Assembly (NCBI GenBank): GCA_963774955.1
Contig: CAVZGV010000004.1
Coordinates: forward strand, 195,522 to 259,521
DNA from: Candidatus Falkowbacteria bacterium
Lineage (GTDB): Bacteria > Patescibacteriota > Patescibacteriia > CAIXNZ01
DNA: 64,000 nt
Direction: 5' to 3'
The position numbers were made by a program, and so were the translations under genes. Numbering within the stretch: the stretch's first letter is position 1; each line of letters starts with the position of its first letter. The notes under the pieces are model-generated. The model was not told the DNA's origin, ran no database searches, and was given only the letters and a program-made list of their open reading frames with translations. Below, piece after piece: positions 14,828 to 55,932 of the stretch.

Positions 14828-15432
14828 ATGTCTATCTTAGAAATAAAAAATTTACCCGAGCAATATGAGGCGCTTTGGCAGCGCTGCGCGCCTTTATTAC
14901 AAAAAGGACGGCCAGATGACGAGGGCCATGCCAAAGATACAGTGGAATTTGTTTTAAATTATCAGGGCGATTTGCCGTTTGATCCGGAAGTCATTATTCC
15001 CGTGGCTATGATGCATGATATCGGCCATTCCGCGTTATTGCCAGAGCATTTAAAATACGTACTGGCGGCGTTAAAATAAAAAATGGCAAATTGGTTCACA
15101 TGCTGGCCGGCGCGAAAATTGCTCATGATTTATTGGTTGACAATTAAGCTATGATCACGGCCAATATCAAGGAAATCGTGGATATTATCAGTATTCATGA
15201 CTGGGATCAATTGGACATTCCTGAGGCAAAGACGGTTTATGATACTGATAATAAAAAGTTCTTTCATGATATTGATGCATTAGACCGCTTTAATCAGGAG
15301 CGTTTGGAATATTATAAAAATTCATTTCAGCAGGGTGAACTGCAGAAATTGATAACCAAGCAGTTGGATGTTTTCTTTTATCCGGAATTTAAAAAAATCG
15401 CCGAGGCGAGATTCAAAATTTTGAAGTTTTAA
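14828..15432 (+). pseudogene. HD-domain phosphohydrolase, interrupted by in-frame stops and a frameshift
   Basis: 'MMHDIGHS' HD motif in ORF 14828-15079. After the TAA, the same frame continues 'KNGKLVHMLAGAKIAHDLLVDN*'. A third piece (15151-15432) lies in another frame. Confidence 0.4.
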
Positions 15433-15436
15433 ATTT

Positions 15437-16880: not shown

Positions 16881-16886
16881 TATTTT

Positions 16887-18395: not shown

Positions 18396-18400
18396 ATCAT

Positions 18401-36800: not shown

Positions 36801-36941
36801 GAATAACAAGAAGCGAGACGCGATGCGTTTCGCTTTTTAAAATTTAAAAATATCAGCATGCATTGACAAAGGACAAAGTTTAAGTTAAAATAGATAATCA
36901 AGGTTCTTTTTACTCCAAACGCTAGCCAAGGAGGCTTGATC

Positions 36942-38087
36942 ATGAAAAGATTGATAATTATCGTAACAGCCATAATTCTGGGAGGGATGCCAATGATAGC
37001 TAAGGCTCATTCTGTCGGTGTTAAGGTTTTGGACCTGAACAATGGCCAGAGGATCATTGTCTGGTATCCAGGCATCAGGTTGGCTAGACAGGAACCGTTT
37101 TCCCATTTTGGCAGGGCCAGAAGCTTAAATGCTTATCTTGACGCCCCAATCGATTTTTTTGGAGCGCCTTACCCGCTGATTGTCCGGTCTCATGGCTTGG
37201 GCATGGGTGCGCTGGACGCTGTTAACTGGTCTGTCAAAGTCGCGGCTGAAGGCTTCGTGGTTGTGGCTTTTGACCACAGCGATGCTCTGGCCTGTAAACT
37301 GGACGGGTCAAGTGATTTAGATTGGATTGCGGCCAGCAAGGCCATGATTCAGTATCATGATGACTTTGATATGGCGGTTCAGACCGCCTTTAGTCAAAGT
37401 CTGACTTATCTGGACAATTCGGTTTATCGTACTCGGGAATTTTCCGCTGTCTTGGATGGAGTCTTGGTTCATCCGTTTTTTCAGGGTTTAATTGATCCTG
37501 ATAAGATCGGCGCGGCTGGTCATTCTTTTGGCGGAGCTACAGTCCTGGCTTTAGGTCATCAGGCTGAAATGGATTGTACTGATCCGGCTAGCTATTCGCC
37601 GCAAATTTGCGGCACTAACCCAAGTACGGGGTTTTCAGGTAGCTTTTTAGCCAGTCAGTGCTGCCGGCCGGCTTATCAGGGCAAAAAGAGCAGCTTCTAT
37701 GACCCGCGAGTTAAAGCTGTTATGGCAGTCGGTCCTGGCACATTTCTTTTCTGGCCGCTGGAAGTCAATATTCCGGTCATGCTGATTAGCGGCGATCATT
37801 TCGAGGTTGATCAGCAGAACATGACCAAGCCGTTTGAAACATTTTCGCAGGTTTATTGGTTGGTGGTAAAGAACACCGACCACATGAACTGGGTATCCTG
37901 GATTTACAATAATATTCCCGGAGCGCCAATGTTTTTTAAAGGCTACAGAGCTTACTGGCTTAAGCAGGCGATTTTTCAGGAATATTCACTGGCTTTTTTC
38001 CAGGCTCACCTTAATGGCGATTTTACCCAGCTGAACAGGCTGAAAAATATTCATTGTTCCCGCATCAACTTCAGATATAAACCTTAA
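36942..38087 (+). CDS. Secreted alpha/beta-hydrolase (esterase/lipase-like)
   Basis: Signal peptide 'MKRLIIIVTAIILGGMPMIAKAHS'. 'GHSFGGA' nucleophile elbow (GxSxG). Shine-Dalgarno 'aaggagg'. Confidence 0.6.
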   Translation: MKRLIIIVTAIILGGMPMIAKAHSVGVKVLDLNNGQRIIVWYPGIRLARQEPFSHFGRARSLNAYLDAPIDFFGAPYPLIVRSHGLGMGALDAVNWSVKVAAEGFVVVAFDHSDALACKLDGSSDLDWIAASKAMIQYHDDFDMAVQTAFSQSLTYLDNSVYRTREFSAVLDGVLVHPFFQGLIDPDKIGAAGHSFGGATVLALGHQAEMDCTDPASYSPQICGTNPSTGFSGSFLASQCCRPAYQGKKSSFYDPRVKAVMAVGPGTFLFWPLEVNIPVMLISGDHFEVDQQNMTKPFETFSQVYWLVVKNTDHMNWVSWIYNNIPGAPMFFKGYRAYWLKQAIFQEYSLAFFQAHLNGDFTQLNRLKNIHCSRINFRYKP

Positions 38088-41963: not shown

Positions 41964-42686
41964 ATGAAAATTTTAATTGTGCTACCTGCCTATAACGAAG
42001 CCAAAATATTAGAGGCTAATGTCACTAAGCTTTTGTTATTTGTCAGGGCCAATTTAAGCAACCAGGAATTTAAGCTTATAATTTCCGATAATAATTCTAC
42101 TGATGATACCCAAACAGTCGCAGAGAGCTTAAAAGTAAAATTTCCTGAAGTTGATTATATTTTTGTCCCCGAACAGGGTAAAGGCAACGCCATAATGGTT
42201 CCTTGGCAAAAACTGCAAAATGACTATAATCTTTATATTTTTATGGATGCTGACTTGGCTACAGACTTGCAGTCTTTGCCGGATTTAATTTCTGGGCTTA
42301 ATAATGGATATGATCTGGTGCTGGGCTCCAGATATTTGAAGGCTTCCCAGGTCAAAAGAACTATTTGGCGGCGGATGTTTTCCCTTGGCTATCGCTGTTT
42401 ATTGAAATTAGTTTTAGGCACAAAAGTGCGTGATTTACCCTGCGGTTTTAAGGCTGTTACCCCAAGGGTCGTGAAAGAAATTATACCAAAAATAAGGAAC
42501 CATACCTGGTTTTTTGATTCTGAAATGGTATTTTTAGCTGAAAAAGACGGCCTGAAAATAAAAGAGATTCCTGTTAAGTGGCAGGAACCCCGGGGTAATG
42601 AAGATAAAAGCCGGGTTAATATGCTTAAAGTTACTAGTCTATATTTTAAAGAGGTTTGGCGACTCAGAAAACAATGCAAAAAATAA
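41964..42686 (+). CDS. GT2 family glycosyltransferase (polyprenol-phosphate sugar synthase, Dpm1/GtrB-like)
   Basis: 'ILIVLPAYNEA', 'ISDNNSTDDT', 'FMDADLATD' (DxD). Confidence 0.75.
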   Translation: MKILIVLPAYNEAKILEANVTKLLLFVRANLSNQEFKLIISDNNSTDDTQTVAESLKVKFPEVDYIFVPEQGKGNAIMVPWQKLQNDYNLYIFMDADLATDLQSLPDLISGLNNGYDLVLGSRYLKASQVKRTIWRRMFSLGYRCLLKLVLGTKVRDLPCGFKAVTPRVVKEIIPKIRNHTWFFDSEMVFLAEKDGLKIKEIPVKWQEPRGNEDKSRVNMLKVTSLYFKEVWRLRKQCKK

Positions 42687-44302
42687 TTAATTTTATTTGT
42701 GCTCATAGCAGCTGGTCACTGTTGGTGATCCTATTTATAGCCCTTATCTTTAGGGTTATTTTAATTGATAAAATACCCGGGGGTTTGCAGGGTGATGAAA
42801 GCCTGATTCTATATAATGCCTGGTCAATTGCTGAAACCGGTGCTGATATTTTTAATGACAGCTTGCCAGTACATTTAAGGGGTTATGGCTGGGGAGAAAA
42901 TTCCTTTTTAGTTTACTTGCTGGTGCCGCTGATTAAATTATTTGGTCCCTTTCAGGTCTCAATTTTTCGGTTAGTAGTTGTTTTATTCCATTTACTGCTA
43001 ATATTATTTTCATTTTTTTTGGCCAGGGAATTATTTGATGAAAAAGTCGGCCTGTTAACGGCTTTATTTTTAACTTTTTCACCCTGGGATTTAGCCTTAT
43101 CCCGGATATTATTCAATGTTTCTCTTTTGCCTTGTTTTTATATTGCCGGACTGTATTTTTTAATTGTTGGTCTAAAAAGAAAACGGGTTGTTTATTTCAT
43201 GATCTCTGGTTTTATCTTAAGTTTAACTTTTTATATTTATGCTTTATCATATTTTTGGGTGCCCATTCTAGTGTTGATAACAGCAATTTCATTTTGGCCA
43301 AAAATAAAGGCCTTAAAATACTGGCATTTTCTAGGGTTTACACTGACGGTCTTGATCATTGGCTTGCCTATCATTTTATTTTATATAAAAAATCAATTCG
43401 GTTTATTGCTGAACCTGGATAAATTCTTGTTTTTTTCTCTGCCCAAATTAACCTCGACCCGTTTTAATAATATTTCAATTTTAAATGAAATTGATATTTT
43501 AATGCCACTAAGCTTGGCCAAAAATTATTTGGCCCATTTTAATCCGGTTTTTTTATTTTTTAATGCGACTTTGCCCAGCTTTGTAAAACACTTCGGATTA
43601 ATTCAGCTTTATGAACTGCCGTTTTTGGTTATCGGCTTGGTCTTAATTTTCATTAATTCACGGTCAGCCAACTATAAGTTTCTTATTTTATGGCTTTTGG
43701 CGGCGTCGTTACCAGTGGCTTTGACCATTGAAAATCTGCCCCATCCCTTACGTTTTGTGAGCGCCTTGCCGATTTTTGAAATCATTGCCAGCCTGGGAAT
43801 TATTTATTTTTTTACCAAGTTTATAACCAACAGAAGAAAAATACTCATGACTTATATTGTTTCAATTGCCATTATTGTTACTGTGGGCTCATATTTTTTT
43901 AATTACTATGTTATTTATCCGCAGACTTCATTCAGGGAACAGCAAGCAGGCAGCCAAGAACTGACTGAGTTTATTCAGGAAAATTATAACCAATATACCA
44001 ATATTTATATTGTAAATCGCGGTTGGTTATATCTGTACTTTCCTTATAATTATTTGTATTTTGCCCGGATTCAGCCGCAAAGGATTCAAGCCCTAAAATT
44101 TGAGCAATTGAAAACAAATTTTGTGCTTGATAAGATAAATTTTGTAGATAAATTGCCAGTGTCTGCGGCTGAAAACGAGCTGACTCAAGATTTGTATTTA
44201 CTGCCAATCGGAGAGGCCTTTGACGGTTTTATTAAGAGTAAACAGCTGCTTAAAGAATTTAAAGATTTAAATAACCAGACCTACTTTGTTGCGCTTAAAT
44301 AA
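42674..44302 (+). CDS. GT-C fold glycosyltransferase (ArnT/PMT-like, GT39/GT83 family)
   Basis: 'GLQGDESLILYNAWSIAETGAD' (DE motif in the first periplasmic loop) and a multi-pass topology. The ATG at 42674 is preferred over the TTG at 42656. Confidence 0.6.
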   Translation: MQKIINFICAHSSWSLLVILFIALIFRVILIDKIPGGLQGDESLILYNAWSIAETGADIFNDSLPVHLRGYGWGENSFLVYLLVPLIKLFGPFQVSIFRLVVVLFHLLLILFSFFLARELFDEKVGLLTALFLTFSPWDLALSRILFNVSLLPCFYIAGLYFLIVGLKRKRVVYFMISGFILSLTFYIYALSYFWVPILVLITAISFWPKIKALKYWHFLGFTLTVLIIGLPIILFYIKNQFGLLLNLDKFLFFSLPKLTSTRFNNISILNEIDILMPLSLAKNYLAHFNPVFLFFNATLPSFVKHFGLIQLYELPFLVIGLVLIFINSRSANYKFLILWLLAASLPVALTIENLPHPLRFVSALPIFEIIASLGIIYFFTKFITNRRKILMTYIVSIAIIVTVGSYFFNYYVIYPQTSFREQQAGSQELTEFIQENYNQYTNIYIVNRGWLYLYFPYNYLYFARIQPQRIQALKFEQLKTNFVLDKINFVDKLPVSAAENELTQDLYLLPIGEAFDGFIKSKQLLKEFKDLNNQTYFVALK

Positions 44303-44356: not shown

Positions 44357-46249
44357 TTAAAAGTTTAATGCACCGATTGTTTCATAACGGTCAAATTCCC
44401 AGGTAATACTGCCAATGCCATTAAGTCCGGGCATGCCGTCAAAGCTGATAATTTCAGCTTTTTTTATTGGCCCCAGATCAAAAAAGTTTAGCTGGATGAT
44501 TTGTCCCGGTTGCCAATTGTGCGTCGGATAAAAACCATAGCCCAGCGGAAAGATTTGGTCATTAATTTTTATAAAATAATTTTGCTCTAGAGGAGTTAAA
44601 GCTTTAAAAAACAATGATAGCTGGGTTGCAGTTTGAGCAGAACCCATGAAGGCTAATTTGGCCTGAAGAATTTGGTTTTGCGGGCTAGATATTTGCGGTA
44701 ATTCCTGATCATTATAGACAATATAAAGCTGAGTGGTAGATGGTGTCTCGGATTTTTGCCATAAAGCCAGGTTGCGCGATACTTTTGTAAGTTTAAAATT
44801 CTTTTCCTCAAGCAGGCTCTTTAATCTGTCTGGAATTTTGTAATAATAGTCTGGATATTTTTGGGCAAATTGCAGCTGAAAGGTTATATAGTCGCTAAAA
44901 TCAATTAAAAGATATTGAGTCTCGTCAGGAATAATATAATCTCCGGCATTAAATTGCTGCCTGCCGGTAACCGCATAATTTAAGGGATAAATATATTGCC
45001 GCGAAGACAGATTTGTTACTAAATCATAAGAAGTTACCAGAGATGCTGATTGCGGTATTTGGGCTACAAACTCCTGTTTAATGGAGGTATTGGCATAATT
45101 AAAATGGATAACGGTCTTGGCCAGGCAGGGCAGGGGACCGAGAATAATAAAATTATAAAGCAAGCCGCCGATAAAAATCAGAGGCAGGACCCCGCCATAT
45201 TCGCGATTAATAAAGGAAATCTTGGAATTTTTGCTCATGGCTTTTAGTGAGAAAATAGTGGCAAGACTAAAAATTATCAGATAAATCGCGCCATAGTGCC
45301 CTTTAATCGTGGCTCCGGTGGCAAAAGACGCCAGCATTAATTGCAGCAGATTACCCAGGCAGAGAAGCAGGTATTTTGGCCGCCAAACCGGAATAAATAA
45401 AAAGACCAGAAAGAAACCCAAAATTAATTCAAGATTTTGAACCGTAACAACATGAGTAAATACCAGAGGAAATTTAGCAAAGAAATTTATAAAAATTTCT
45501 CCCGGAGTTTTGCCCAGCCAATAATAATAAGTCAAAAATTTATAAGAAGACATTGAAGAGACCAGGGCGGCTAATTTCATAATAATTAAAAAGTATGAAG
45601 CGGCCAGCAAAGAGGGTGTCAGAATCCATTTAAGTTTTTTTCTATCCAGGAGGGCAACCAGGCCAAATAAGAAAATCACAAAGGCCACGTCCTCACGCAC
45701 TAACAAACTGAGTCCGCACCAGGCCAGAAAAGGCCAGAATTTATTCTGATCATAAAAATAAAAAGTCCAGGCTATAAAAAAAGGAGCAAAGGCTAGAATA
45801 TGAAATTCATATAGGGCAATATTGAAGGTCAGCGGGTTAAATAAAAAAAGCAGAATAACCAATAGTCCCAATTGAGGCGTTAAGTGCTTTTTGGCCAGCA
45901 GGTATAGGGGAATGGCAGTAAAGCCTAATATGCAGGCTTGAATAAAAAGCAGATTAAGAGGCGAGCGCCAGATAGTATAAATTGGGACTAGAAAAAAGAT
46001 GATTAATTCAAAATGGTCACCTAAATATGAGGTCGGATGAATGGAAAATTCAAATAAACGGCCGAATGAGGAATTATAAAAGACTTGGTTGAAAATGGCT
46101 AAATCCAGGCCATTATAAAGGAAATTAAAGTATTTGTATAGACAGATTCCAAAAATAATAAAAATATAGATAAAAATTAAGCCAAAAGTAATTTTGGCTA
46201 ATTTTGGCCAATCAAGCTTTTTAAACCATTTAAATTCAGGAGTTTTCAT
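44357..46249 (-). CDS. Large polytopic membrane protein (DUF2079-like / putative GT-C-like)
   Basis: 630 aa, multi-pass, with a C-terminal soluble domain. Confidence 0.35.
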   Translation of the reverse strand: MKTPEFKWFKKLDWPKLAKITFGLIFIYIFIIFGICLYKYFNFLYNGLDLAIFNQVFYNSSFGRLFEFSIHPTSYLGDHFELIIFFLVPIYTIWRSPLNLLFIQACILGFTAIPLYLLAKKHLTPQLGLLVILLFLFNPLTFNIALYEFHILAFAPFFIAWTFYFYDQNKFWPFLAWCGLSLLVREDVAFVIFLFGLVALLDRKKLKWILTPSLLAASYFLIIMKLAALVSSMSSYKFLTYYYWLGKTPGEIFINFFAKFPLVFTHVVTVQNLELILGFFLVFLFIPVWRPKYLLLCLGNLLQLMLASFATGATIKGHYGAIYLIIFSLATIFSLKAMSKNSKISFINREYGGVLPLIFIGGLLYNFIILGPLPCLAKTVIHFNYANTSIKQEFVAQIPQSASLVTSYDLVTNLSSRQYIYPLNYAVTGRQQFNAGDYIIPDETQYLLIDFSDYITFQLQFAQKYPDYYYKIPDRLKSLLEEKNFKLTKVSRNLALWQKSETPSTTQLYIVYNDQELPQISSPQNQILQAKLAFMGSAQTATQLSLFFKALTPLEQNYFIKINDQIFPLGYGFYPTHNWQPGQIIQLNFFDLGPIKKAEIISFDGMPGLNGIGSITWEFDRYETIGALNF

Positions 46250-46292
46250 ATCTATATTTTAGCTTAAATTTAGTAAAATATAAAGGCGGGTA

Positions 46293-46321
46293 TTGACAAA
46301 TGACTATTAATATGCTATACT
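46293..46321 (+). promoter_or_regulatory. Consensus sigma70-type promoter TTGACA-17-TATACT upstream of the G+C-rich lipoprotein gene
   Basis: TTGACA at about 46293 and TATACT at about 46316. The 'ATATGCTATACTG' -10 context matches the island promoter at 31600. Confidence 0.45.
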
Positions 46322-46410
46322 GTAGAGATTGAAGAAATTCGGAAATTGTCTTTAGTTATACCAATAACAAGTTGCAAACAAACTGCCCTCAGGGCAGAGG
46401 AGGAAAAATC

Positions 46411-46950
46411 ATGAAGAAAGTCACCGTTCTTTTTATGGCGTTGATCGCGACCGTCGCGATTTTCACTGGCTGTGCCACTGCCAAACGCGGCGATACCTCG
46501 TATCACGGGCCGAGTAATGCTCGGGCCGAAGAAGTGATCGAGCCCAGCCCTGGCTGGTCCGTAGCCCAGGAGGCCGTCCGCAACAACCCTAATGCCAACG
46601 TGCGCATGCGGTCGGGCAGTGACGTTTTCGAGTACAACCCTCCCGGTTCCACCCCAGCTCCTGGCAATGATCTGCCTGCCAATGGTATGCTCAAAGGCAC
46701 TTTTCACAACGGTATGCCCGACGTGATTGATGTTAAAATCATCCATTCTGGCAGTGTCGTGGACAGCTTTTCCGTCCAGCCGGGACAGTGTAAGCCTGTG
46801 CCTTTGCCTCCTGGCAAATACAGCTATACTGTTTCGAATCGCGGGACTGGAGAGAACGTCAGCCTGCCTTTCGAGCTCATGGGAGTGAGAAACTACACCT
46901 CTCCATGTGGAGGCGGGCACGTAGATTTCGTGCTCTACGTCGTGCCGTAA
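46411..46950 (+). CDS. G+C-rich lipoprotein of unknown function (probably horizontally acquired)
   Basis: Shine-Dalgarno 'gaggagg'. 'MKKVTVLFMALIATVAIFTGC' lipobox. Clearly G+C-richer than the surrounding genes. Hairpin terminator at about 46961-46995. The antisense ORF 46315-46920 is judged spurious. Confidence 0.55.
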   Translation: MKKVTVLFMALIATVAIFTGCATAKRGDTSYHGPSNARAEEVIEPSPGWSVAQEAVRNNPNANVRMRSGSDVFEYNPPGSTPAPGNDLPANGMLKGTFHNGMPDVIDVKIIHSGSVVDSFSVQPGQCKPVPLPPGKYSYTVSNRGTGENVSLPFELMGVRNYTSPCGGGHVDFVLYVVP

Positions 46951-47003
46951 AATGAATATAAAAGGGCAATCCTTCGGGATTGCCCTTTTCTTTTTGAATT
47001 TTT

Positions 47004-47441
47004 TTAGGTGCTGGCGCCTGGATTCATAGGACCGCCACCACCTTCAAGTGATGCCCTTAAGATGGCATTAACCACAAAGGTTGTGATGGCATAGGCAGTC
47101 GCAATAATTAACACCCCAATAACCGCATAAATAATGACATTCTTGGCATGTTCAACTTTTTTGGCTTCACCGGTTGAGGTCATGTATAAAACTCCGCCAT
47201 AAATCATTAAAATTACAAAGACTATACCTAAAAGGCCAAGCATTATTTGAATGATTGTCGCGGCAATTTGTGCCGGGTGAGCCGGTTCATCCTGTCCATA
47301 CACCTGGCCGCCGAAATTTTGAATAGAATTGGTGATAGAACCGCCGGCAGGAGTGTCGCCGGTTGCGAAAACAGCGCTAACGGACATTAAAATGCAACAA
47401 ACAATGATTAAGAGTTTAAAGGCCAGATATATTTTTTTCAT
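47004..47441 (-). CDS. Pilin-like small secreted protein with a two-TM core (VirB2/TrbC-like topology), array member 1
   Basis: Signal peptide, variable segment, then 'IIQIMLGLLGIVFVILMIYGGVLYMTSTGEAKKVEHAKNVIIYAVIGVLIIATAYAITTFV'. Confidence 0.55.
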   Translation of the reverse strand: MKKIYLAFKLLIIVCCILMSVSAVFATGDTPAGGSITNSIQNFGGQVYGQDEPAHPAQIAATIIQIMLGLLGIVFVILMIYGGVLYMTSTGEAKKVEHAKNVIIYAVIGVLIIATAYAITTFVVNAILRASLEGGGGPMNPGAST

Positions 47442-47464
47442 ACAATTTTACTTTAATTTATATT

Positions 47465-47851
47465 TTATTGAGGAATTAATGATTGTTCAATGCTGCTGGA
47501 AACAAAATAAGCTATGGTGTAAGCCATTAAGACAATGGCCAGGCCGATGACCGCAGTAATCAGCAGCCCTTTAGCTTTTTGTACTTTTTTTGGCTCACCC
47601 TGAGAAAACATATATAAAGTACCGCCGTAAATAAAGACGATCATGAAAATTACGCCCACAAAAACAATCAGGCTTTTTATTAGGACGGCGGCAAAGCTTT
47701 GGGGCGTGGCTTTGCCCAGATTAGTTACATTGCCGGCGGTATTTTGTAAACCTCCGGAAAATTGGCTAGCCTGCACGGCTTGAATTCCAAAAGTAGAAAA
47801 TAAAATAAATATCAAAAAGAAAATGGCCAGACATGTATAAAATTTTTTCAT
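47465..47851 (-). CDS. Pilin-like two-TM protein, array member 2
   Basis: 'LIKSLIVFVGVIFMIVFIYGGTLYMFSQGEPKKVQKAKGLLITAVIGLAIVLMAYTIAYFV'. Confidence 0.55.
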   Translation of the reverse strand: MKKFYTCLAIFFLIFILFSTFGIQAVQASQFSGGLQNTAGNVTNLGKATPQSFAAVLIKSLIVFVGVIFMIVFIYGGTLYMFSQGEPKKVQKAKGLLITAVIGLAIVLMAYTIAYFVSSSIEQSLIPQ

Positions 47852-47864
47852 AAATGTAAGCGTT

Positions 47865-48251
47865 TTATTTTAGGGATGTTTCCAGGGTTGTGGCAATGAA
47901 ATATGTAACCGCATAGGCCGTCATCACAATAAGAAATCCAAAAATTGCCAGTTTGAGCAGATCCTTGGCCTTTTTAATTTTGGACTCTTCGCCTAGCGAA
48001 GTCAGGTAAGTAAATCCGCCGTAAATAAACATAATAACAAAGACTATGGCGATTAGGCCCAGTAAAACTTGGATTATTTGAGCGGCCAAACCAGCCAGCG
48101 AAGTCTCTGTCTTTATGCCGGCGCCTTCGCCAGTTTGGGCAATAAAGCCATTTACATTGCTTAAATTCAAAGGCTGGGCAAAGGTTATGGTTGCTTGGGC
48201 GCCAAGACTAATAACTAAAAGTAAAATAATGATCCAATGGGATATTTTCAT
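47865..48251 (-). CDS. Pilin-like two-TM protein, array member 3
   Basis: 'IIQVLLGLIAIVFVIMFIYGGFTYLTSLGEESKIKKAKDLLKLAIFGFLIVMTAYAVTYFI'. Confidence 0.55.
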   Translation of the reverse strand: MKISHWIIILLLVISLGAQATITFAQPLNLSNVNGFIAQTGEGAGIKTETSLAGLAAQIIQVLLGLIAIVFVIMFIYGGFTYLTSLGEESKIKKAKDLLKLAIFGFLIVMTAYAVTYFIATTLETSLK

Positions 48252-48282
48252 AAACCATAATTTAAAAAGATACTTATTGGGC

Positions 48283-48780
48283 TTAACGGCAGTCGCAACA
48301 ATGAGGTGATTCAGCTGGGCAGCTTAATTGACCCAGGTCAGGACAACTAGCGCAATTTTCCTGGGCGCATGTTCCGGGGCAGGTTTGCCCGGCCGGCTGA
48401 GTGGCATTTTCAATGGTACTGGCCACAAAATAGGTAATTGAATAGGCGGCCATAATTATTATAAACCCGATTATGGCTTTGCTGATAATTTGTTTGGCCT
48501 TTTTTATTTTTGCCTCCTCGGCAGCGGAGGTCATGTAAGTAAAGCCTCCGTAGATAATTAAAATTAGAAAACCAGCGCCGACCAAGCCTAAAAGAGCGTT
48601 GATTACCCGGGCAATAATTAAGCCGAGATTACCCTGATTTTCCGAATAACCAATGGTATTTCTGGTGGAGTTTAAAAATTCATTCTGATTGGCAAAGCTA
48701 TAACCAAAAGCCGGGCTAAAGTACAAAAACAAGCCCGAAATAATAAGCACTAAAAATATTAAAAATAATTTATTTTTCAT
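48283..48780 (-). CDS. Pilin-like two-TM protein with a Cys-rich C-terminal tail, array member 4
   Basis: 'VINALLGLVGAGFLILIIYGGFTYMTSAAEEAKIKKAKQIISKAIIGFIIIMAAYSITYFV' followed by '...CPGTCAQENCASCPDLGQLSCPAESPHCCDCR'. Confidence 0.55.
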   Translation of the reverse strand: MKNKLFLIFLVLIISGLFLYFSPAFGYSFANQNEFLNSTRNTIGYSENQGNLGLIIARVINALLGLVGAGFLILIIYGGFTYMTSAAEEAKIKKAKQIISKAIIGFIIIMAAYSITYFVASTIENATQPAGQTCPGTCAQENCASCPDLGQLSCPAESPHCCDCR

Positions 48781-48798
48781 TTTATTTAAAAGGCCCGG

Positions 48799-49167
48799 TT
48801 ATTGCGCGGTTAGCGTACTGAAAATCAGCGAGGTAATCGCATAGGCTGCGCCTAAAACCATGGCGCCGATAATGGCCCAGGTAATAACTGTACGACCCTT
48901 TTTTAAGGTTGTTTCAGTGCCTGCTGAAGCCATCATTAATATTCCGCCATAAATAATTAGAAACAAGAAAAGTGATCCGGCCAGAGCTAAGCCTGCGCCG
49001 GCAATCCGACCCAAAAAAGCCGGGACGCCACCGCCGCCAAATTCAGGTAATTTAGCTTCTGACTGAGTTCCGGGAAGGCCATAATCAGCAGTCGCCTGGG
49101 TTTGATTTAACGGTACTAGGCAAGTCAACGTGACTATAAATAAAGATAATATTATAAATGTTTTCAT
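48799..49167 (-). CDS. Pilin-like two-TM protein, array member 5
   Basis: 'GAGLALAGSLFLFLIIYGGILMMASAGTETTLKKGRTVITWAIIGAMVLGAAYAITSLI'. Confidence 0.5.
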   Translation of the reverse strand: MKTFIILSLFIVTLTCLVPLNQTQATADYGLPGTQSEAKLPEFGGGGVPAFLGRIAGAGLALAGSLFLFLIIYGGILMMASAGTETTLKKGRTVITWAIIGAMVLGAAYAITSLIFSTLTAQ

Positions 49168-49238
49168 GATTTTGTGTAAAAAATTCCCCTAAGGGATGAG
49201 GGATGGACAGGCGTCCATCCCTCAAAAGGTACATTAGA

Positions 49239-49628
49239 TTATAGGGCACCTGTAGTTGCACCAATAATAGAATTGATGACAAAGGTGGCGATGGCATAGG
49301 CCGTTAAAACAATAATCAGGCCAATAATGCCGGAGTAAATCAACTGTTTAGCTTTTTTAACAGATTCTTCATTACCCATTGCAGTCATATACTTGAAGCC
49401 GCCAATCAAAATGATTAAGACAGCAACAATTCCCAATAAACCCATGGCTACGCGGATGATATTAGCGATGGTGATTCTAACATCCTGGGTTCCCATGCCA
49501 ATGTATGGTCCGACGTATTGGTTTAGACCCGGATCAATGGTTTTGCCTGTAGCACTAACCATTAAAGGCATGACCAAGATGCCGATAAGGGCTAAAGAAA
49601 GTGCTAACTTGACTAAATTCTTTTTCAT
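49239..49628 (-). CDS. Pilin-like two-TM protein, array member 6
   Basis: ATG start at 49628 ('MKKNLVKLALSLALIGILVMPLMVSATG'). 'IIRVAMGLLGIVAVLIILIGGFKYMTAMGNEESVKKAKQLIYSGIIGLIIVLTAYAIATFV'. Confidence 0.5.
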   Translation of the reverse strand: MKKNLVKLALSLALIGILVMPLMVSATGKTIDPGLNQYVGPYIGMGTQDVRITIANIIRVAMGLLGIVAVLIILIGGFKYMTAMGNEESVKKAKQLIYSGIIGLIIVLTAYAIATFVINSIIGATTGAL

Positions 49629-49741
49629 GTTTTTTTTACCCTTTGTCAATACTCGGTTTAGAAAAACCAAGCATTGATAAGTTAATTATTAATATTTAAT
49701 TGTTTACTATATTATAATATTATTTCCTACATTTAGCAATT

Positions 49742-50338
49742 TTATTGAGGTGCTTGGGTTTCGCCGCCTCCGCCTCCACCGCCGGTAGTCAGGCCGGTAA
49801 AAATAAAATTAACAATCACATAACTGCCCAAGATTACCATAATGCCGATAATGGCCCAGGTAATTATTTTTTTGCCTGCCTGAATCTTGGGGTCTTGCCC
49901 GGCTGCGGTCATGAGCATAAAACCGCCATAAACAAACATAAATAAGGCCACAGAACCGGTAATGCCCAAAACAGCGTTAATCACCCGACCAATAACAGTA
50001 TTAATGCCGGAAATGCCGGAAACGCCCAAGGGATTAACTTCGCTAAGGTCAACAGTGGTGCCTCCAGTGGTGGCTGGTGGTTGCTGGGTTGTTGGGGGGG
50101 GGGTTGTTGGTGAAGGAGTTTTGGGGACACAACATTCTTTTCCTGCGGCACTTGTACAATCACTTGTAAATTGACTATTTTCAGTTGCAGGATTACAAGT
50201 ATTACCACCTTCCATATTAGTAAAACGACAATTACCACCTAATTCACTACAAGTGGCTGCTAGGGTTACTTTAGGTGAACTAAAAAACAAGCCGGTGAAA
50301 AGCAGTAAACATAAGATAATTAACCAGTTTTTTTTCAT
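49742..50338 (-). CDS. Pilin-like two-TM protein with a Cys-rich and Pro/Thr-rich N-terminal extension, array member 7
   Basis: 'CSELGGNCRFTNMEGGNTCNPATENSQFTSDCTSAAGKECCVPKTPSPTTPPPTTQQPPATT', then 'VINAVLGITGSVALFMFVYGGFMLMTAAGQDPKIQAGKKIITWAIIGIMVILGSYVIVNFI', then a poly-Gly tail. Confidence 0.55.
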   Translation of the reverse strand: MKKNWLIILCLLLFTGLFFSSPKVTLAATCSELGGNCRFTNMEGGNTCNPATENSQFTSDCTSAAGKECCVPKTPSPTTPPPTTQQPPATTGGTTVDLSEVNPLGVSGISGINTVIGRVINAVLGITGSVALFMFVYGGFMLMTAAGQDPKIQAGKKIITWAIIGIMVILGSYVIVNFIFTGLTTGGGGGGGETQAPQ

Positions 50339-50419
50339 AAAGATATGTTTTTAAGTTTTAAAATATAATTATTTACCCATCTTTGCGGCTATAGCGTGGG
50401 TTTTGTCTGGGAAGTTTTT

Positions 50420-51409
50420 TCATTCAGGTTGACAGGTAGATATTGAAGCAATACCCGGAGTATCTTTACATTTAGATCCTGGCGGGCAGGGAATGTCATC
50501 ATCACCAGCAAGTCCACGATCGATGTTGGCATCTTCGCATTCTTGTCCTACTGTTATGGCGCTAACGCATTTGCCTCGTCCGTCATCATCCTTACCATCT
50601 CCATAGGGTGGTTCCGCAAATTCAAAGCAAATGCCAGATTGGCACTCAGCTTTATCATCACAGTCGCTGTCAACACCATTTCCTTTTTTATTAGCAACAC
50701 AACATTGTCCGGCAATACATTGTGTAGTTGCTGCTCCACCAAAAAATCCGGCGCAATAAGCATCAACACAAGCAAGATTATCTGCGCCATCAATTTCCAT
50801 GTCTTTACAGCCAAATTTAGCAGGGTCTTCAATTTTACCGCCACTGGGTAATTTTGTGGCGCAAATTTTGGCTTTGGTGCAATACAAAGTTGCACCGCAT
50901 TCAGCGGTTTTAGCGCAGGGTTTGCCTATCTTATCCGCATCACTGGGTTTGGGCATAGCGTCTGTAAGATTGACTGCGTTTTCAGGCGGTTTAGGCGTAA
51001 ATGAAACAGGAACACAGGTAAGCTTGGCTTGCCAGTCAAATTCTTGAGCGGTTAAAACCGAAACTAAGGTCGTAACAATCAGGTAAGCGGAAAAAATAAT
51101 ACCCAAGCCGATAACGGCATTAACCAGAATATCTTTCCCCTTTTTAATATTTCCCTCATTACCGCCGGAAACCAGCCAGGTAAAACCGCCATAGACAAAC
51201 ATTAAAAGCACCAAACTGCCGATTATGCCCAGAATTACTTTGCCGGCATTGATGGCTGTCTGTAAAATATCACACAAGGAACAGTCGCCGGTGCTGGTGC
51301 AGGCAGGCAGGATAGAATCCTGAGCCCAGGCAATCTGAGATAAAGAAACCAAAACCCCCAAACTTATTAAAATTATAAGCAAAAATCTGATTTTTTTAAA
51401 GCTGGACAT
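50420..51409 (-). CDS. Pilin-like two-TM core fused to a ~220 aa Cys-rich extracellular domain, array member 8
   Basis: 'VILGIIGSLVLLMFVYGGFTWLVSGGNEGNIKKGKDILVNAVIGLGIIFSAYLIVTTLV' followed by a domain with more than 25 Cys residues and D/G-rich segments. Confidence 0.55.
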   Translation of the reverse strand: MSSFKKIRFLLIILISLGVLVSLSQIAWAQDSILPACTSTGDCSLCDILQTAINAGKVILGIIGSLVLLMFVYGGFTWLVSGGNEGNIKKGKDILVNAVIGLGIIFSAYLIVTTLVSVLTAQEFDWQAKLTCVPVSFTPKPPENAVNLTDAMPKPSDADKIGKPCAKTAECGATLYCTKAKICATKLPSGGKIEDPAKFGCKDMEIDGADNLACVDAYCAGFFGGAATTQCIAGQCCVANKKGNGVDSDCDDKAECQSGICFEFAEPPYGDGKDDDGRGKCVSAITVGQECEDANIDRGLAGDDDIPCPPGSKCKDTPGIASISTCQPE

Positions 51410-51441
51410 AAAAATATGTAAATTAATAATCGGTATAAATT

Positions 51442-52818
51442 TTATTGGATGGTCAGGCTAACTTTGCTATTGGCCTGGCTGACCAGATCAATAGTTTTAT
51501 AAGCACCGGTTAAATTATCCGTAATCATATCTGTAAATATTTTCTCGGCAGTTTGCGGGTTTTTGCCTTTATACCAACTGCGGGCCGTCAGGATTTGTTC
51601 CACAAAAGGTGCCAGCACCACATCATCTTGCTGCCATTCAATCAATGAGCGTAAAGCAACCGGCTTTTGCGCCTTGGTCACATATTTTTTATTAATATCC
51701 TGATTGGTTGTAATGAATAATAAGAAATCCCAGGCCTCATTTTGATACTGACTTTTTTTAGAAACGGTTTCTGCCCAGTAATTGGCGAAATTAATTGAAG
51801 GCTGTGAAAGCTGCGGTATGGGGGCAATATCAAAATTAAGTTTGGGTGCTTGGGTTTTAATAGTCGGAATATCAAAGGCATAGCCGATATAAAAAGCAGT
51901 CAGACCTTGGATAAAAGCTTGTTTAGAATTTGGCATGGTTTCATTCCAGGAATAGGCTTCATTGCTGGGGACGGCAAAACGATTATAAAAGTTTAAGGCC
52001 GAAACAGCCGGAGCATCTACACTTGTGTAACCTAGAGGTTTGGCATTAAATGTCGGAAAGCCGTTATCATCAGTCATTGGAGCGCCGACTTGCATCATCA
52101 GCAAGCTCAGAATGTCAGAGGCGCGGTTAACATTAGCAGCCGTGCCCATCGCTACACCGGACTGGATAATATCTTTTTGCGGATCGCGTTTGGTCAATTT
52201 ACCGACCTGCACCAGGAGCTGATCCCAGGTTGTAGGCGGGGCTGTAATCCCGGCGTTATTAAGTAAATCTCGATTATAAAACAAAGCCAGCGTGTCAATG
52301 CTTAAAGGCAGACCATATATTTGGCCGTCGATCAGCTGGTTATCAGTGACTACATCCGGAAATAAAATGCTCAGATCTCTGGTTGTCAGAGTCTTTTTTT
52401 GCTGTTCCTTGGTGTAGGTTACTTTTTGAAGTGTACCCATCTGGACCGAGTAAAGCATTTTTATCTGGGCCGGCAACGGTTGGATTTTAGACTGGTATTT
52501 TTTCATCCAAGTAGTTTGAATGGAAAAAATATCCGGACCGCGATCTTCGGCCAGCGCATTGAGCACTTTATCCTCGTATTCATCATAGCGAAAATTTTCA
52601 TAGCGGATGGAAACATAGGGATTGATTTTTTGGTATTCAGTTATTAACTCGCTGATATTGTCGCTTTCCTCAAAAACTTTCCAGTATTTCAAGGTTATTG
52701 GTTTGGGTGGCCCTTCTTTTATCACACCAGCCGGCAAACTGCCGCATTTGGCGCCGGTAGTAGCCAGAAAGGCAAAAATTAAGAAGGCGATGATTAGTTT
52801 TTTGTTTGGTTTTAACAT
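51442..52818 (-). CDS. ABC-transporter extracellular solute-binding protein (family 1, sugar-type), lipoprotein-like
   Basis: Signal/lipobox 'FLATTGAKC'. 458 aa, periplasmic-binding fold size. W/Y-rich. Confidence 0.5.
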   Translation of the reverse strand: MLKPNKKLIIAFLIFAFLATTGAKCGSLPAGVIKEGPPKPITLKYWKVFEESDNISELITEYQKINPYVSIRYENFRYDEYEDKVLNALAEDRGPDIFSIQTTWMKKYQSKIQPLPAQIKMLYSVQMGTLQKVTYTKEQQKKTLTTRDLSILFPDVVTDNQLIDGQIYGLPLSIDTLALFYNRDLLNNAGITAPPTTWDQLLVQVGKLTKRDPQKDIIQSGVAMGTAANVNRASDILSLLMMQVGAPMTDDNGFPTFNAKPLGYTSVDAPAVSALNFYNRFAVPSNEAYSWNETMPNSKQAFIQGLTAFYIGYAFDIPTIKTQAPKLNFDIAPIPQLSQPSINFANYWAETVSKKSQYQNEAWDFLLFITTNQDINKKYVTKAQKPVALRSLIEWQQDDVVLAPFVEQILTARSWYKGKNPQTAEKIFTDMITDNLTGAYKTIDLVSQANSKVSLTIQ

Positions 52819-52897
52819 ATTTTTGGAAAATTTTTTAATTTATATTTTTATTAAACCGTTAATTTGCGCTGATGGCTTGGAGACTGAAAACATGCCG

Positions 52898-53767
52898 TTA
52901 GTTAATGGAGTCTAGGTACTCTTTAAATTCTTTGGCCAGGTCAGGACGCTGTAAGGCAAAATCAACATTGGCTTTGAGCCAGCCGAGCTTGGAGCCCGTA
53001 TCATAATAATTGCCTTCAACTAAACAGGCGTAAAGGTTTCGTTTTTGTGACAAATTAAAAATGGCATCTACCAGCCACAGTTCGCCGCCTTGGCCGATCT
53101 TGGTTTTTTCCAGAATATCAAAAATGTCAGGGGTTAAAATATAGGCGCCGATAGTGCCTATGCGGCTGGGCGCTTTGTCCGGTCCAGGTTTTTCAACGAT
53201 TTTTTTTACTTGGATAATATTTTTTTCAACTTCAGAACCTTCAATGACTCCGTATTTTTTAGTTTCCTCATCATTGATTTTTATGGCAGTTAAAACCGGA
53301 GCCTGGTATTTTTCATAAACAGCCATCAGTTGCTTTAAACGCGGCTGGCCTTGGTTGTTGACAAATAAATCATCTCCCCAAATAACCGCAAAAGGCTCAT
53401 CGCCAATAATTTTTTTGGCATTTAAAACAGGCGTGCCGTTGCCGTAAGGTCCTTTTTGGCGGACATAAATAAAATTGGCCATGTCGGCAATTTCTTTTAT
53501 TTCTTCTCTCATATCTTCTTTGCCGGTTTTTTTCAGCCAGTTTTGCAGTTCATAATTATAATCAAAATGATCCTCAATTGCCCGTTTTGATGCGCCCGTA
53601 ACTAAAATAATGTCTTCAATGCCTGAAGCCACGGCTTCTTCAACTATATATTGAATTACCGGTTTATCAATAATCGGCAGCATTTCTTTGGGCATGGCTT
53701 TGGTCGCTGGTAAAAATCTGGTGCCAAATCCGGCCACTGGAATGATACACTTTTTAATAGCATTCAT
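52898..53767 (-). CDS. galU: UTP-glucose-1-phosphate uridylyltransferase (GalU-type sugar-nucleotidyltransferase)
   Basis: 'KKCIIPVAGFGTRFLPATKAMPKEMLPIIDKPVIQY' signature. Start at ATG 53767 ('MNAIKK') rather than the ORF-track start at 53833. Confidence 0.8.
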   Translation of the reverse strand: MNAIKKCIIPVAGFGTRFLPATKAMPKEMLPIIDKPVIQYIVEEAVASGIEDIILVTGASKRAIEDHFDYNYELQNWLKKTGKEDMREEIKEIADMANFIYVRQKGPYGNGTPVLNAKKIIGDEPFAVIWGDDLFVNNQGQPRLKQLMAVYEKYQAPVLTAIKINDEETKKYGVIEGSEVEKNIIQVKKIVEKPGPDKAPSRIGTIGAYILTPDIFDILEKTKIGQGGELWLVDAIFNLSQKRNLYACLVEGNYYDTGSKLGWLKANVDFALQRPDLAKEFKEYLDSIN

Positions 53768-53886
53768 AGCTAAATTATAGCACAAACAGTGATAAATTTG
53801 AAAGTGAATCTGGGCAAGACTCGTAGCCGGCAAACGAGCTGGCCGGGAAATAAAAAATCCCCGGCTAAGTGAGGGGATTTTTTTGT

Positions 53887-55932
53887 TTATCTGTCGACCC
53901 TGGTATACGTCAGAAAATTATCCGCACCATTTATATAGACCTGGTCACTGCCGGAGGTAAGCAGATAAACATGAGGATAGGTATTGGGTTTCCAATATGG
54001 CTGAATTTTGAAGTCAAAGGTAATTTCTTCTCCGGGATTGACCGTAGTTTTCGTAGTTTTTATAGTTTTATTGTTTTGCCATGACCAGTCCCTGAACCAT
54101 GAATTTGTGCCGTCAATATCCGTGCTTTTTAAGGTAACATTAGTCCAGGCTTTACTGCCGATGTTTTTAAAGGTAAGTTTGACTTTTGGTCGCCATGAAG
54201 TTTTAACGGCGATGGGCAGGGTATTGGCTGTAATTTGGGCAGCATAGGGTGCCACAACATCAATGACCTGAGCCAGACTGAAAAATTCAGTCTCATTATA
54301 ATTTAAACTTACGGTCAAAGGAATGGATCCGGGATTTTTTGGGGCTTGAATGGGGAATTCAAAAGTAGCCGTGGCATTTGGATAGATCAATTCTTCTCTG
54401 GGAGTAAATGAACCGGATTGGTCAGACCAAGTAGCAGTTTTTAAGGTTGAATTTGCGGTTAGTATTTTTAATTTCAGACTGCTTTTTTTCCAGGTTTGAT
54501 TGCCGTCATTACGAAACTGCATAAGAACTGTTTGGTCTTGTTGCAGGGATAATTGGCCGGGCAGATTTGACTGAAGTAAACTGGCTTTAAATATCATTTG
54601 TTCCGATTGAGTATTTTGGCAGTCGCAGGCAATTTTATGGGCAGTAATTGAAAAATCAGTCTCAGGGAAATAGCCTTTATTTTGCCAGGCGAGAATGAAA
54701 TTTTTTGTTTCAGTAGACTGTTGCGGTGAATTCAGGGTGATTTTAAACCTGCCGATCTGACCGGGATAAACATTGCCGTCTATAAGCTTGAAAACAGGGA
54801 AACTATTAGTGGCCATTTTTACTCCGCCAGCTTCATCCGAAGCCAGCGCAATTTTTAAAGTATCAATTTTCGCAATTTTATTTTTGATTTGGGAGTCTGT
54901 TAAATACAGATAATTATCCTCATAACCCCGCCAGGTGGCTTGGCCGGTATTTTTAAATTGGGCATAAATATCCGCAGATTTAGTTTCTTCGATATTAATT
55001 TCCGTGGCGCTCAGGCTGACAAATTGAGCTCCGGTCGGCAGCGGTTTCTTATATCCGCCCAGATCAATCAAGGCATTATAGGCAAGTTGTCTGACTTCAG
55101 GCAGGGTATTAGAAATTAAATTACCGGGACAAGTGGTGTTGCCGACATCGCGATGACCGATTACGTTTGGTAAAATCTGTCCGTGAAACTCACTTTGCCC
55201 CAGAGGATCAATATTAAATTCTTGACCTTTAAGCGCGATTAAGTTATCCAGTGATAGTTTTGTTGCTTCGGTTAAATTGTCCGGAGTATTGCAATTAATT
55301 TTATTTTTTTCATTTTGTTGGTTGTCATAACAGCCTAAAATAGCAATACCGATGGTGTTTCGGTTTCTTAAATAAGCATGACCGCCGACAACGCCATCAC
55401 CGCCTGCTCGTCCTTCATATATATTGCCGTTGGAATCAATCAGATAATTATAACCGATATCGCCCCAGCCCAGCTGGACAGCATGGTAATAATAAATCGC
55501 GCGCATTGTTGCTTTGGGGTCAAGATTGGCTTTTTCACCGGCAGTATGATGGAGCACAAATTTTTGCGGAGTATAATATTCTTCCGGCCATAAATTGGCG
55601 CCGCTGGGTTCAAAGCGTAAAGATTCATCAGCGCCCCATTCAGCCCGGGAAATAATTTTTAAATTCTGATCATTAGCACTTAAGCTGATTTTAAAGTTTC
55701 CGGCTGGTCCTTTGGTTGTATCCAAATATGTAAATTGCAAATTTTGCAGGTCTGTTTTGGCCTCATTGGCATTAAAAATCAGTTTGTATTGAAATGAATC
55801 TGTCAGTTTGGTCGGGATCATCTGACTGGTCAGCTGGGCTTTGGCCGTGTCTTTACCCTGAGAATCATCATCAAGCTCCATTTTTATCCAATCACTCCAG
55901 TTTTCATTCAAAAAACGAACATACAAGTTCAA
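53887..55932 (-). CDS. N-acetylmuramoyl-L-alanine amidase (Amidase_2/PGRP domain) with C-terminal beta-sandwich repeats. The 5' end is frameshifted relative to a signal-peptide ORF (55904-56200).
   Basis: 'FVLHHTAGE', 'GWGDIGYNYLID', 'GHRDVGNTTCPG' (zinc amidase motifs). The ORF has only a TTG start. Its frame stays open upstream of the TTG and overlaps the signal-peptide ORF 55904-56200, which is in another frame. Confidence 0.6.
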   Translation of the reverse strand: MNLYVRFLNENWSDWIKMELDDDSQGKDTAKAQLTSQMIPTKLTDSFQYKLIFNANEAKTDLQNLQFTYLDTTKGPAGNFKISLSANDQNLKIISRAEWGADESLRFEPSGANLWPEEYYTPQKFVLHHTAGEKANLDPKATMRAIYYYHAVQLGWGDIGYNYLIDSNGNIYEGRAGGDGVVGGHAYLRNRNTIGIAILGCYDNQQNEKNKINCNTPDNLTEATKLSLDNLIALKGQEFNIDPLGQSEFHGQILPNVIGHRDVGNTTCPGNLISNTLPEVRQLAYNALIDLGGYKKPLPTGAQFVSLSATEINIEETKSADIYAQFKNTGQATWRGYEDNYLYLTDSQIKNKIAKIDTLKIALASDEAGGVKMATNSFPVFKLIDGNVYPGQIGRFKITLNSPQQSTETKNFILAWQNKGYFPETDFSITAHKIACDCQNTQSEQMIFKASLLQSNLPGQLSLQQDQTVLMQFRNDGNQTWKKSSLKLKILTANSTLKTATWSDQSGSFTPREELIYPNATATFEFPIQAPKNPGSIPLTVSLNYNETEFFSLAQVIDVVAPYAAQITANTLPIAVKTSWRPKVKLTFKNIGSKAWTNVTLKSTDIDGTNSWFRDWSWQNNKTIKTTKTTVNPGEEITFDFKIQPYWKPNTYPHVYLLTSGSDQVYINGADNFLTYTRVDR

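Follow-up and report, generated by a model that had tools for sequence, protein, structure and literature searches.

We describe an array of eight tandem genes for small, pilin-like secreted proteins in a 64,000-nt stretch of DNA (hereafter the window) from Candidatus Falkowbacteria bacterium (contig CAVZGV010000004.1). The genes occupy positions 47004–51409 on the minus strand and encode members of PF18895, a pilin family of type IV secretion systems (T4SSs). In related genomes each paralogue behaves as a fixed subunit in its own right and not as one of a pool of interchangeable variants, and the array directly follows the gene of an orphan solute-binding protein (SBP). On balance, we favour the view that the genes are co-expressed and that their products are non-redundant parts of a single heteromeric assembly, pilus- or channel-like, which would be built by a T4SS encoded elsewhere. 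A first-pass annotation had already taken the locus for a tandem series of VirB2-like pilins; that reading is supported in substance, and the kind of locus is not new (PMC12102498, PMC10633639).

The eight open reading frames (ORFs) are co-directional, and their coordinates are exactly as first annotated. Member 1, the last gene of the array, lies at 47004–47441 (145 aa) and is preceded, on the same strand, by member 2 (47465–47851, 128 aa), member 3 (47865–48251, 128 aa), member 4 (48283–48780, 165 aa), member 5 (48799–49167, 122 aa), member 6 (49239–49628, 129 aa), member 7 (49742–50338, 198 aa) and member 8 (50420–51409, 329 aa). For member 6, the coordinates correspond to an ATG start; the frame is open back to a TTG at 49670. 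The paralogues share 22.7–44.8% identity over their BLAST-aligned parts, and 24–37% with member 1 in global alignments. A common core can nevertheless be aligned in all eight, in which GG, G and Y are invariant, so that the description of these products as paralogous secreted proteins with two transmembrane helices holds.

Hydropathy analysis assigns three hydrophobic segments to each member, namely a signal peptide with an AxA-like site and two helices of ~22–24 residues. In all members, the loop that joins the helices carries a net positive charge (K+R 3–5 versus D+E 1–3), and the N-terminal mature segments (21–87 aa) are neutral or acidic. This pattern of charge and hydropathy fits an N-out, loop-in, C-out topology. 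Each product is thus predicted to consist of a cleavable Sec-type signal peptide and a helical hairpin with a cytoplasmic basic loop, and not of a single signal-anchor. Because the basic loop of the hairpin should face the cytoplasm, the N-terminal segment and the C-terminus would lie outside the cell. All cysteines beyond the signal peptides fall in segments predicted to be outside the cell; a few more occur inside the signal peptides.

Three members carry additional modules on the hairpin core. Member 4 has a 40-aa C-terminal module with eight cysteines. Member 7 begins with a six-cysteine N-terminal module, followed by a Pro/Thr-rich linker, the hairpin core and a Gly-rich tail. Member 8 consists of the signal peptide, the core and a 212-aa Cys-rich C-terminal tail that starts at about residue 118. 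We counted 22 cysteines in member 8, 19 of them in the tail, and not the more than 25 annotated earlier.

Regarding family identity, the gathering score of PF18895 (T4SS_pilin; 26.6 bits) is passed by seven of the eight members, at 32.6–40.6 bits and E = 3e-10 to 8e-08, profile matches that are far beyond chance. The individual scores are 33.7, 32.6, 34.9 and 37.2 bits for members 1 to 4, and 40.6, 37.4 and 39.5 bits for members 6 to 8. The divergent member 5 scores only 18.0 bits, yet the same core could be aligned in it and it has orthologues at the same array position in the two closest relatives (90% and 49% identity). Member 6 also passes the cut-off of NF045849, the Mycoplasma pilin family (41.4 bits against 40); members 1, 2, 3, 4 and 7 reach 27–33 bits, and members 5 and 8 are unmatched. 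The matches lie in the hairpin core and cover nearly the whole 80-position model.

The relationship to the classical pilins is more remote. PF04956 (TrbC/VirB2) was matched below its gathering score of 27.9 bits only, with 19.2 bits for member 1 as the best case and 15.6 bits for member 8; some database homologues carry a precomputed PF04956 hit. When the family alignment was compared by hhalign with the sequence of Agrobacterium tumefaciens VirB2 (PDB 8cue), the two aligned in register but weakly (P = 0.00099, probability 21.7%). The same procedure gave no similarity to F TraA, and a profile search of the PDB sequences with the family alignment returned no hits. The AlphaFold model of member 6 shows a confident helical hairpin at residues 50–127 (helices 50–82 and 87–127), with a predicted local distance difference test (pLDDT) score of 84–94. 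The proteins are thus PF18895 members that are VirB2-like in topology and by remote similarity, and membership in PF04956 is not demonstrable. The VirB2/TrbC-type topology proposed at first is borne out to this extent. In Pfam searches at E ≤ 1, none of the eight proteins matched a VirB3-like or PrgI family. An assignment as type IV pilins was rejected, given the lack of a PF07963 (N_methyl) match and the ordinary Sec signal peptides with AxA-type sites at the N-termini.

The family data also bear on an alternative in which the proteins are two-helix membrane peptides that have nothing to do with secretion, such as small holins or bacteriocin-immunity proteins. Their small size, their two hydrophobic helices and generic fold matches, for instance to ATP synthase subunit c, would suit such a role. 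However, none of the eight matched a holin or immunity family at E ≤ 1 in Pfam, as opposed to the significant PF18895 matches, and the cleavable signal peptides and extracellular Cys-rich domains also speak against it. Furthermore, no bacteriocin, lysis or phage gene was found near the array, where the neighbours are envelope and housekeeping genes. A scan of 2.9 million viral contigs with the pilin profile returned no relatives, and a phage or holin context is rejected on that ground. We consider this explanation effectively refuted.

The PF18895-type family is very large, with 85,295 representatives of 50%-identity clusters matching at E ≤ 0.001. The database homologues of our proteins are named Parcubacteria, Uhrbacteria, Magasanikbacteria, Falkowbacteria, Buchananbacteria or Patescibacteria group, in line with the host from the candidate phyla radiation (CPR) that had been presumed. 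Among the database proteins are 'polypilins' (P0133, P0136, P0138 and P0141), in which 2–17 tandem T4SS_pilin hairpins follow one signal peptide in one polypeptide; P0133, for example, has 6 units in 552 aa and P0138 has 17 in 1,775 aa. Others are giant proteins of 2,263–4,039 aa that open with one complete pilin module (P0217, P0224, P0233, P0258, P0261, P0265, P0270, P0273 and P0277). The 819-aa P0241 likewise has one N-terminal pilin module, followed by a long tail that looks adhesin-like by eye. The hairpin thus appears to be widely used in large proteins as a carrier or anchor for extracellular domains. The fused polypilins suggest that different hairpins pack side by side and, since such single polypeptides with 2–17 tandem hairpins exist, they provide a hint of co-assembly.

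The evidence that the eight genes are not interchangeable comes from related genomes. The closest relatives compared are a metagenome-assembled contig of 'Candidatus Parcubacteria bacterium' from Lac Pavin (L001) and a Logan contig (L002). In both, the SBP gene on one side and the lipoprotein and DUF2079 genes on the other enclose the same eight pilin genes, with their order unchanged. Every member has its reciprocal-best orthologue in the corresponding place of the L001 and L002 arrays, and for most members this is true of L003 and L004 as well. Relative to L001, the hairpin cores are 87–97% identical and the whole small pilins 77–90% (77% for member 1, 81–83% for member 2 and 82% for member 3), compared with 78–81% for the flanking SBP and DUF2079 proteins. 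The short N-terminal segments of the small members are 65–100% identical to those of the closest relative. Member 6 is the most conserved; its orthologues in six other genomes are 53–84% identical. DNA repeats within the array occur only at the conserved core motif, at 60–77% similarity, and a recent duplication or gene conversion was rejected for this reason. The comparison shows the eight paralogues to be ancient: related genomes retain each of them in its own place, with a degree of conservation close to that of the housekeeping genes on either side.

These results speak to the suggestion, made in the first-pass annotation, that hypervariable ectodomains in a tandem array serve surface-appendage variation. 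In that scenario, which has been proposed for the Bartonella and Anaplasma arrays and suggested for Patescibacteria (PMC12102498), the locus would be a cassette of eight alternative major pilins, one or few of which are used at a time for surface or host-strain variation. Indeed, the paralogues are only 23–45% identical and their outside segments differ from one another; members 8 and 7 are fast-evolving, and the number of decorated members differs between genomes. The positional orthologues in L001, however, match the flanking housekeeping genes in conservation, short outside segments included, and the copy number is stable at 8, 8 and 8 in the window, L001 and L002. No repeats, conversion tracts or invertible elements were found, the gaps between the genes are short, a single terminator closes the array, and fused multi-hairpin proteins imply co-assembly. 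Hypervariability thus applies between paralogues; between orthologues it is limited to members 8 and 7, in their Cys-rich modules. Because the paralogues are positionally orthologous and conserved across genomes, we take them for fixed, distinct subunits and regard a variation cassette as unlikely.

Sequence comparison between orthologues shows fast divergence (12–48% identity) in two members only, 8 and 7, and there in the Cys-rich modules. In member 8, the core is 90% identical to that of L001 and the C-terminal tail 32%, with many indels. In member 7, the core is 97% identical, the N-terminal module 48% and the C-terminal tail 12%, the L001 orthologue having an extra C-terminal Cys-rich tail. 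The module of member 4, unlike those of members 7 and 8, is conserved (73% identity of its C-terminal tail in L001). Members 8 and 7 are nearest the SBP gene, and their disulfide-rich modules sit on Gly/Thr/Pro linkers. Towards the SBP gene, the L003 and L004 arrays vary in how many decorated members they have and in the size of these (281–456 aa, up to 43 Cys). No Pfam domain was found in the Cys-rich parts of member 8 and of seven large relatives. The AlphaFold model of member 8, built on a four-sequence alignment, has a mean pLDDT of 47, with the Cys-rich tail below 50. As discrete and fast-evolving units, these modules are obvious candidates for host-specificity determinants.

Genes for an IS200-type Y1 transposase and a 23S_rRNA_IVP (bAvd-like) protein were observed among or beside the large decorated pilin genes of some relatives (L004/L005, 4438–6635; L088, 5729–6100). 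They sit at the SBP-proximal end of the array, the end that varies in gene number and size.

Turning to the setting of the array, the SBP gene (51442–52818, minus strand) ends 32 nt upstream of member 8. It encodes a carbohydrate-type protein (SBP_bac_1; PF01547, PF13416) with weak matches to GanS/MalE-type NCBIfam models, and it is an orphan in the sense that no ABC permease or ATPase gene was found in the 64-kb window. The first gene of the block is galU (52898–53833, minus strand), for UTP-glucose-1-phosphate uridylyltransferase (TIGR01099, 347 bits against a cut-off of 326.8; PF00483). The eight pilin genes are separated by 13–81 nt, and a bidirectional terminator-like hairpin follows member 1 at 46960–46989 (13-bp stem, six G-C pairs, T-runs on both strands). 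This hairpin, which was also picked up as an inverted repeat, is the strongest terminator-like site in 46200–54000 and would close both the array operon and a convergent lipoprotein gene. Given the short gaps and the single strong terminator after member 1, galU, the SBP gene and the eight pilin genes are probably transcribed as one chromosomal operon. A promoter-like site at 49180–49151 (11/12 matches) lies within the coding sequence of member 5 and was treated as a chance match.

The association with the SBP gene extends well beyond the closest relatives. T4SS_pilin genes come immediately after the SBP gene in 11 of 11 independent loci. Two of these (L091 and L092) were found from the SBP side, with SBPs 48% identical to ours, and again the pilin genes directly follow. 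More distant contigs with the same setting (L003, L004/L005, L006, L007, L088/L089 and L090) have 7–11 pilin genes. An NTP_transferase (galU-type) gene is directly upstream of the SBP gene in L003, L004/L005, L006, L007, L090 and L091; in L088/L089, one pilin gene stands between the two. The order in L091 is galU, SBP, eight pilin genes (seven matching PF18895) and DUF2079. L092, a complete 896-kb genome (OW818634.1; region 10001–18895), has a single pilin gene after the SBP gene and a separate six-gene array 5 kb downstream, with unrelated genes in between, so that the block can split. Over a wide range of lineages, then, the partners of the array are the gene of an orphan sugar-binding protein and genes for UDP-glucose synthesis and C-type glycosyltransferases (GT-C), not virB4. 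The published work on such arrays examined virB4 neighbourhoods (PMC12102498); in the text and supplements searched, neither the linkage to the SBP gene nor the positional orthology of the members nor the Cys-rich decorations were mentioned. The first two of these, together with the module-restricted divergence, may be new as modest additions.

In L006 (2205–4619) and L088 (1843–4257), type IV pilin-like genes (PF07963; 596 aa and ~204 aa) lie a few genes upstream of the galU-SBP-array block. Type IV pilus (T4P)-type and T4SS-type pilin genes may thus be neighbours in some lineages.

Several glycan-related genes surround the block. Downstream of the array is a polytopic DUF2079 membrane protein gene (44357–46249, minus strand; PF09852, 178.6 bits), the product of which is presumably GT-C-glycosyltransferase-like; it also follows the array in L001–L005 and in the distant L091. 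Next to it is a pair of genes for a family 2 glycosyltransferase (GT2) and a PMT_2 (GT-C) protein (41964–44302, plus strand; PF00535, PF13231), kept in L002–L005. The best NCBIfam matches of the GT2 protein, all under cut-off, are PgfS, AglJ, dolichyl-phosphate hexose transferase and ArnC-type enzymes. This polyprenyl-phosphate-sugar-synthase-like protein and its PMT_2 partner are a possible context for a glycosylation route outside the membrane. Upstream, on the galU-SBP side, genes for an amidase, a Wzx-type flippase and SpoIID place the array among envelope genes. The convergent lipoprotein-like gene (46411–46950, plus strand) has a lipobox-like FTGC and matches no model of Pfam or NCBIfam. 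In L001–L005 a similarly sized gene, also on the strand opposite to the array, takes this position; only the L001 copy was compared in sequence, with 37% identity. The G+C content of the gene is 0.557 versus 0.39 for the window, and a long antisense ORF covers 46315–46920. It is a possible component of the system.

With the array and its setting described, we return to the assembly that the eight products may form. We infer the assembly itself, its T4SS link and the roles of the SBP and of glycosylation from the above. In the proposed model, each of the eight members would be a non-redundant part of one heteromeric structure, pilus- or channel-like and rooted in the membrane, with member 6 as the candidate major subunit, being the most conserved. 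The decorated members 8, 7 and 4 would display disulfide-rich modules, the variable ones of which may be binding modules directed at the host cell. A monoderm-type (MPF-FATA-like) VirB4 system elsewhere on the chromosome would draw the hairpins from the membrane and polymerise them. More speculatively, the orphan SBP and the GalU, GT2 and GT-C neighbours might work with the assembly, by capturing a ligand or by O-glycosylating the Pro/Thr linkers.

A number of results weigh against this model. First, the searches for T4SS genes were negative. A Pfam scan of 48 window ORFs, all those of at least 440 aa among them, found no VirB4 or VirD4, and none of the 48 matched VirB6, although a divergent VirB6 could escape Pfam; the earlier statement that the window lacks these three genes stands with that proviso. 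None of VirB4, VirD4 and VirB6 was found within 10 kb of the array in any of the 11 related loci. In 80 relatives, including a 413-kb contig that carries an orthologous array, they were likewise not found within 10 kb of dnaA, the upstream side of which is a site suggested by the literature for several classes; the Walker-A ORFs of at least 450 aa in that search were DnaA, PilB/GspE-type ATPases and SMC only. That this genome has a T4SS at all is an assumption of the model. Second, we know of no filament of this pilin family seen in any organism. Third, the PF04956 match and the profile search of PDB sequences were both non-significant, and the fold search could not discriminate, since helical hairpins from thousands of unrelated proteins, ATP synthase subunit c among them, came up as matches. 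Fourth, the chains of up to 17 hairpins and the giant single-module proteins fit a permanent membrane anchor at least equally well. Finally, the roles given to the SBP and to glycosylation are read from gene neighbourhood and are speculative.

This brings us to the main rival explanation, in which the hairpins are never extracted. They would instead form a T4SS-independent membrane scaffold that anchors extracellular modules and acts with the SBP and the envelope-glycan enzymes, the similarity to pilins reflecting shared ancestry only. Such a scaffold would account for the constant adjacency of SBP and pilin genes without virB4 within 10 kb in the 11 loci, for the recurrence of GT-C, GT2 and flippase neighbours, and for the giant proteins (2,200–4,000 aa) and P0241 with their single N-terminal pilin module. 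It is less easily reconciled with the predicted pilin series of Saccharibacteria, which lies in a T4SS cluster and is essential together with it, or with the published table (PMC12102498), where PF18895-matching genes adjoin virB4 and trsD in many of the assemblies. In addition, the tiny, highly conserved and undecorated member 6 has nothing to display, and the conservation of the basic loop and the GG motif over the 85,295 cluster representatives suggests a shared assembly interaction. We therefore hold the scaffold to be possible but rather improbable.

An assembly served by a distant T4SS would have precedents in gene arrangement. VirB4 was found in 2,417 of 3,035 Patescibacteria assemblies (~80%), and a pilin gene was near virB4 in 1,135 of 1,948 (PMC12102498). 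The published table includes assemblies with virB4 plus distant VirB2-like genes, e.g., GCA_000990355.1; the assemblies of L091 and L092 are absent from that supplement (PMC12102498). Patescibacterial VirB4 nests in the MPF-FATA class, which includes Tenericutes (PMC12102498). As for location, the SBP relatives of the present locus are named Falkowbacteria, Uhrbacteria and Buchananbacteria. If these three belong to the class ABY1, this would fit the published placement of T4SS loci in that class, which have comF, recG and radA for neighbours instead of dnaA (PMC12102498).

We would also raise, as a long shot, a broader interpretation of the galU-SBP-array block, often extended by a DUF2079/PMT-type GT-C gene. 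The block might define a second, T4SS-unlinked class of VirB2-like loci in Patescibacteria, whose eight fixed subunits would form a heteromeric, possibly O-glycosylated surface filament or conduit with the SBP as a dedicated partner. Such a device would serve nutrient capture or host-glycan recognition, in contrast to a pilus of the conjugation type, and its assembly might be VirB4-independent. Short of that, the linkage to the SBP and glycosylation genes hints at a functional partner missed by virB4-centred studies.

Some features of the window away from the array are recorded here. The window starts inside dnaA (1–1296), the frame of which is open from base 1; the listed ORF has 344 aa versus ~460 aa in relatives. 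dnaN follows at 1559–2719, and the array is ~47 kb from dnaA. Between 9680 and 24198 on the plus strand, seven proteins share a C-terminal PEP-utilizers mobile domain (PF00391; ORFs 9680–11353, 12036–13208, 16887–18395, 18401–19729, 19740–21251, 21261–22715 and 22732–24198), with no Pfam match in their N-terminal parts save a helix-turn-helix domain in the first. After this set comes a separate PPDK_N (ATP-grasp) protein (26584–27540, plus strand), the whole being an unusual expansion near the replication origin. G+C is raised (0.43–0.47) at 31.7–38 kb, where several ORF pairs overlap on opposite strands. The only tRNA gene found, tRNA-Leu CAG (37315–37396), is overlapped by a 383-aa ORF call (36936–38087) that is probably spurious. 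Upstream of the array, an Amidase_2 protein (53887–55932, minus strand) and a SpoIID protein (58599–60773, plus strand) both have Ig-like domains of the N_BRCA1_IG type, so that two wall-remodelling enzymes with a shared domain flank the flippase gene.

The closest known systems are the pilin arrays of other Patescibacteria. Quinonero-Coronel 2025 ran PF18895 and PF04956 on 3,035 Patescibacteria genomes and reported 441 arrays of 2–11 VirB2-like genes in 383 assemblies, with a within-array identity of 25% on average and 54% at most (PMC12102498). An array was defined there as at least two pilin genes in tandem or split by one non-pilin gene (PMC12102498). With eight consecutive genes, gaps of 13–81 nt, low identity and a Patescibacteria host, our locus is an array in that sense. 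Proximity to virB4, true of only part of the published cases, is not a feature of it. The present array is therefore a further case of a published kind, in a conserved operon behind an SBP gene. It resembles the published arrays, and that of Southlakia epibionticum ML1, in the PF18895 family, in the tandem genes of low identity, in the monoderm CPR host and in being chromosomal and not on a mobile element. Unlike the sampled published arrays, which are a few genes from virB4, it sits in a galU-SBP-array(-DUF2079) block.

In Southlakia, the predicted pilin series inside the T4SS cluster was found to be essential by Wang 2023 (PMC10633639) and was later counted as six VirB2-like pilins (PMC12857230). 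Our array, in contrast, has no T4SS gene in its 64-kb window. Southlakia is the sole Patescibacterium with genome-wide transposon sequencing, which shows that it cannot grow as an epibiont without the T4SS and the pilin series (PMC10633639, PMC11665869, PMC12857230). A monoderm T4SS that bears a pilus would be without precedent (PMC10633639, PMC11665869, PMC12857230), and the existence of such a pilus is treated as an open question in a 2025 review (PMC12857230).

More distantly, the array shares with the VirB2/TrbC pilins (A. tumefaciens VirB2, PDB 8cue and 8exh; RP4 TrbC) the signal peptide, the two helices, the short basic loop and the size, besides the sub-threshold PF04956 matches and the weak in-register profile alignment to VirB2. 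It differs from them in staying under the PF04956 gathering score and in having no VirB5 or VirB6–11 neighbours and, compared with the pilins of diderm T4SSs, in its monoderm host and extra Cys-rich domains. The model of the pilin family of Mycoplasma integrative conjugative elements (ICEs; Mbov_0395/MMCAP2_0565, NF045849) matches the hairpin core of our proteins, with member 6 above the cut-off, and both lineages are wall-poor or monoderm. That family belongs to a conjugative ICE, whereas the eight copies of the present array are chromosomal, have signal peptides and decorations, and lack a relaxase gene or other signs of an ICE around them.

The VirB2 paralogues of Bartonella and Anaplasma phagocytophilum, intracellular pathogens, are likewise several divergent copies in tandem and are thought to provide antigenic or host-range variation (as cited in PMC12102498). 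Unlike in those arrays, the positional orthology and conservation seen here argue for fixed, distinct subunits. The minor-pilin operons of T4P and type II secretion systems encode pilins that are not homologous to ours, which have neither a class III signal peptide nor the motif for N-methylation, G/(F,M)xxxE, and differ in topology and fold. In the proposed model, nevertheless, the organisation would be alike: a major subunit and conserved, non-redundant minor subunits would be encoded in one operon, some of the minor subunits carrying adhesive domains.

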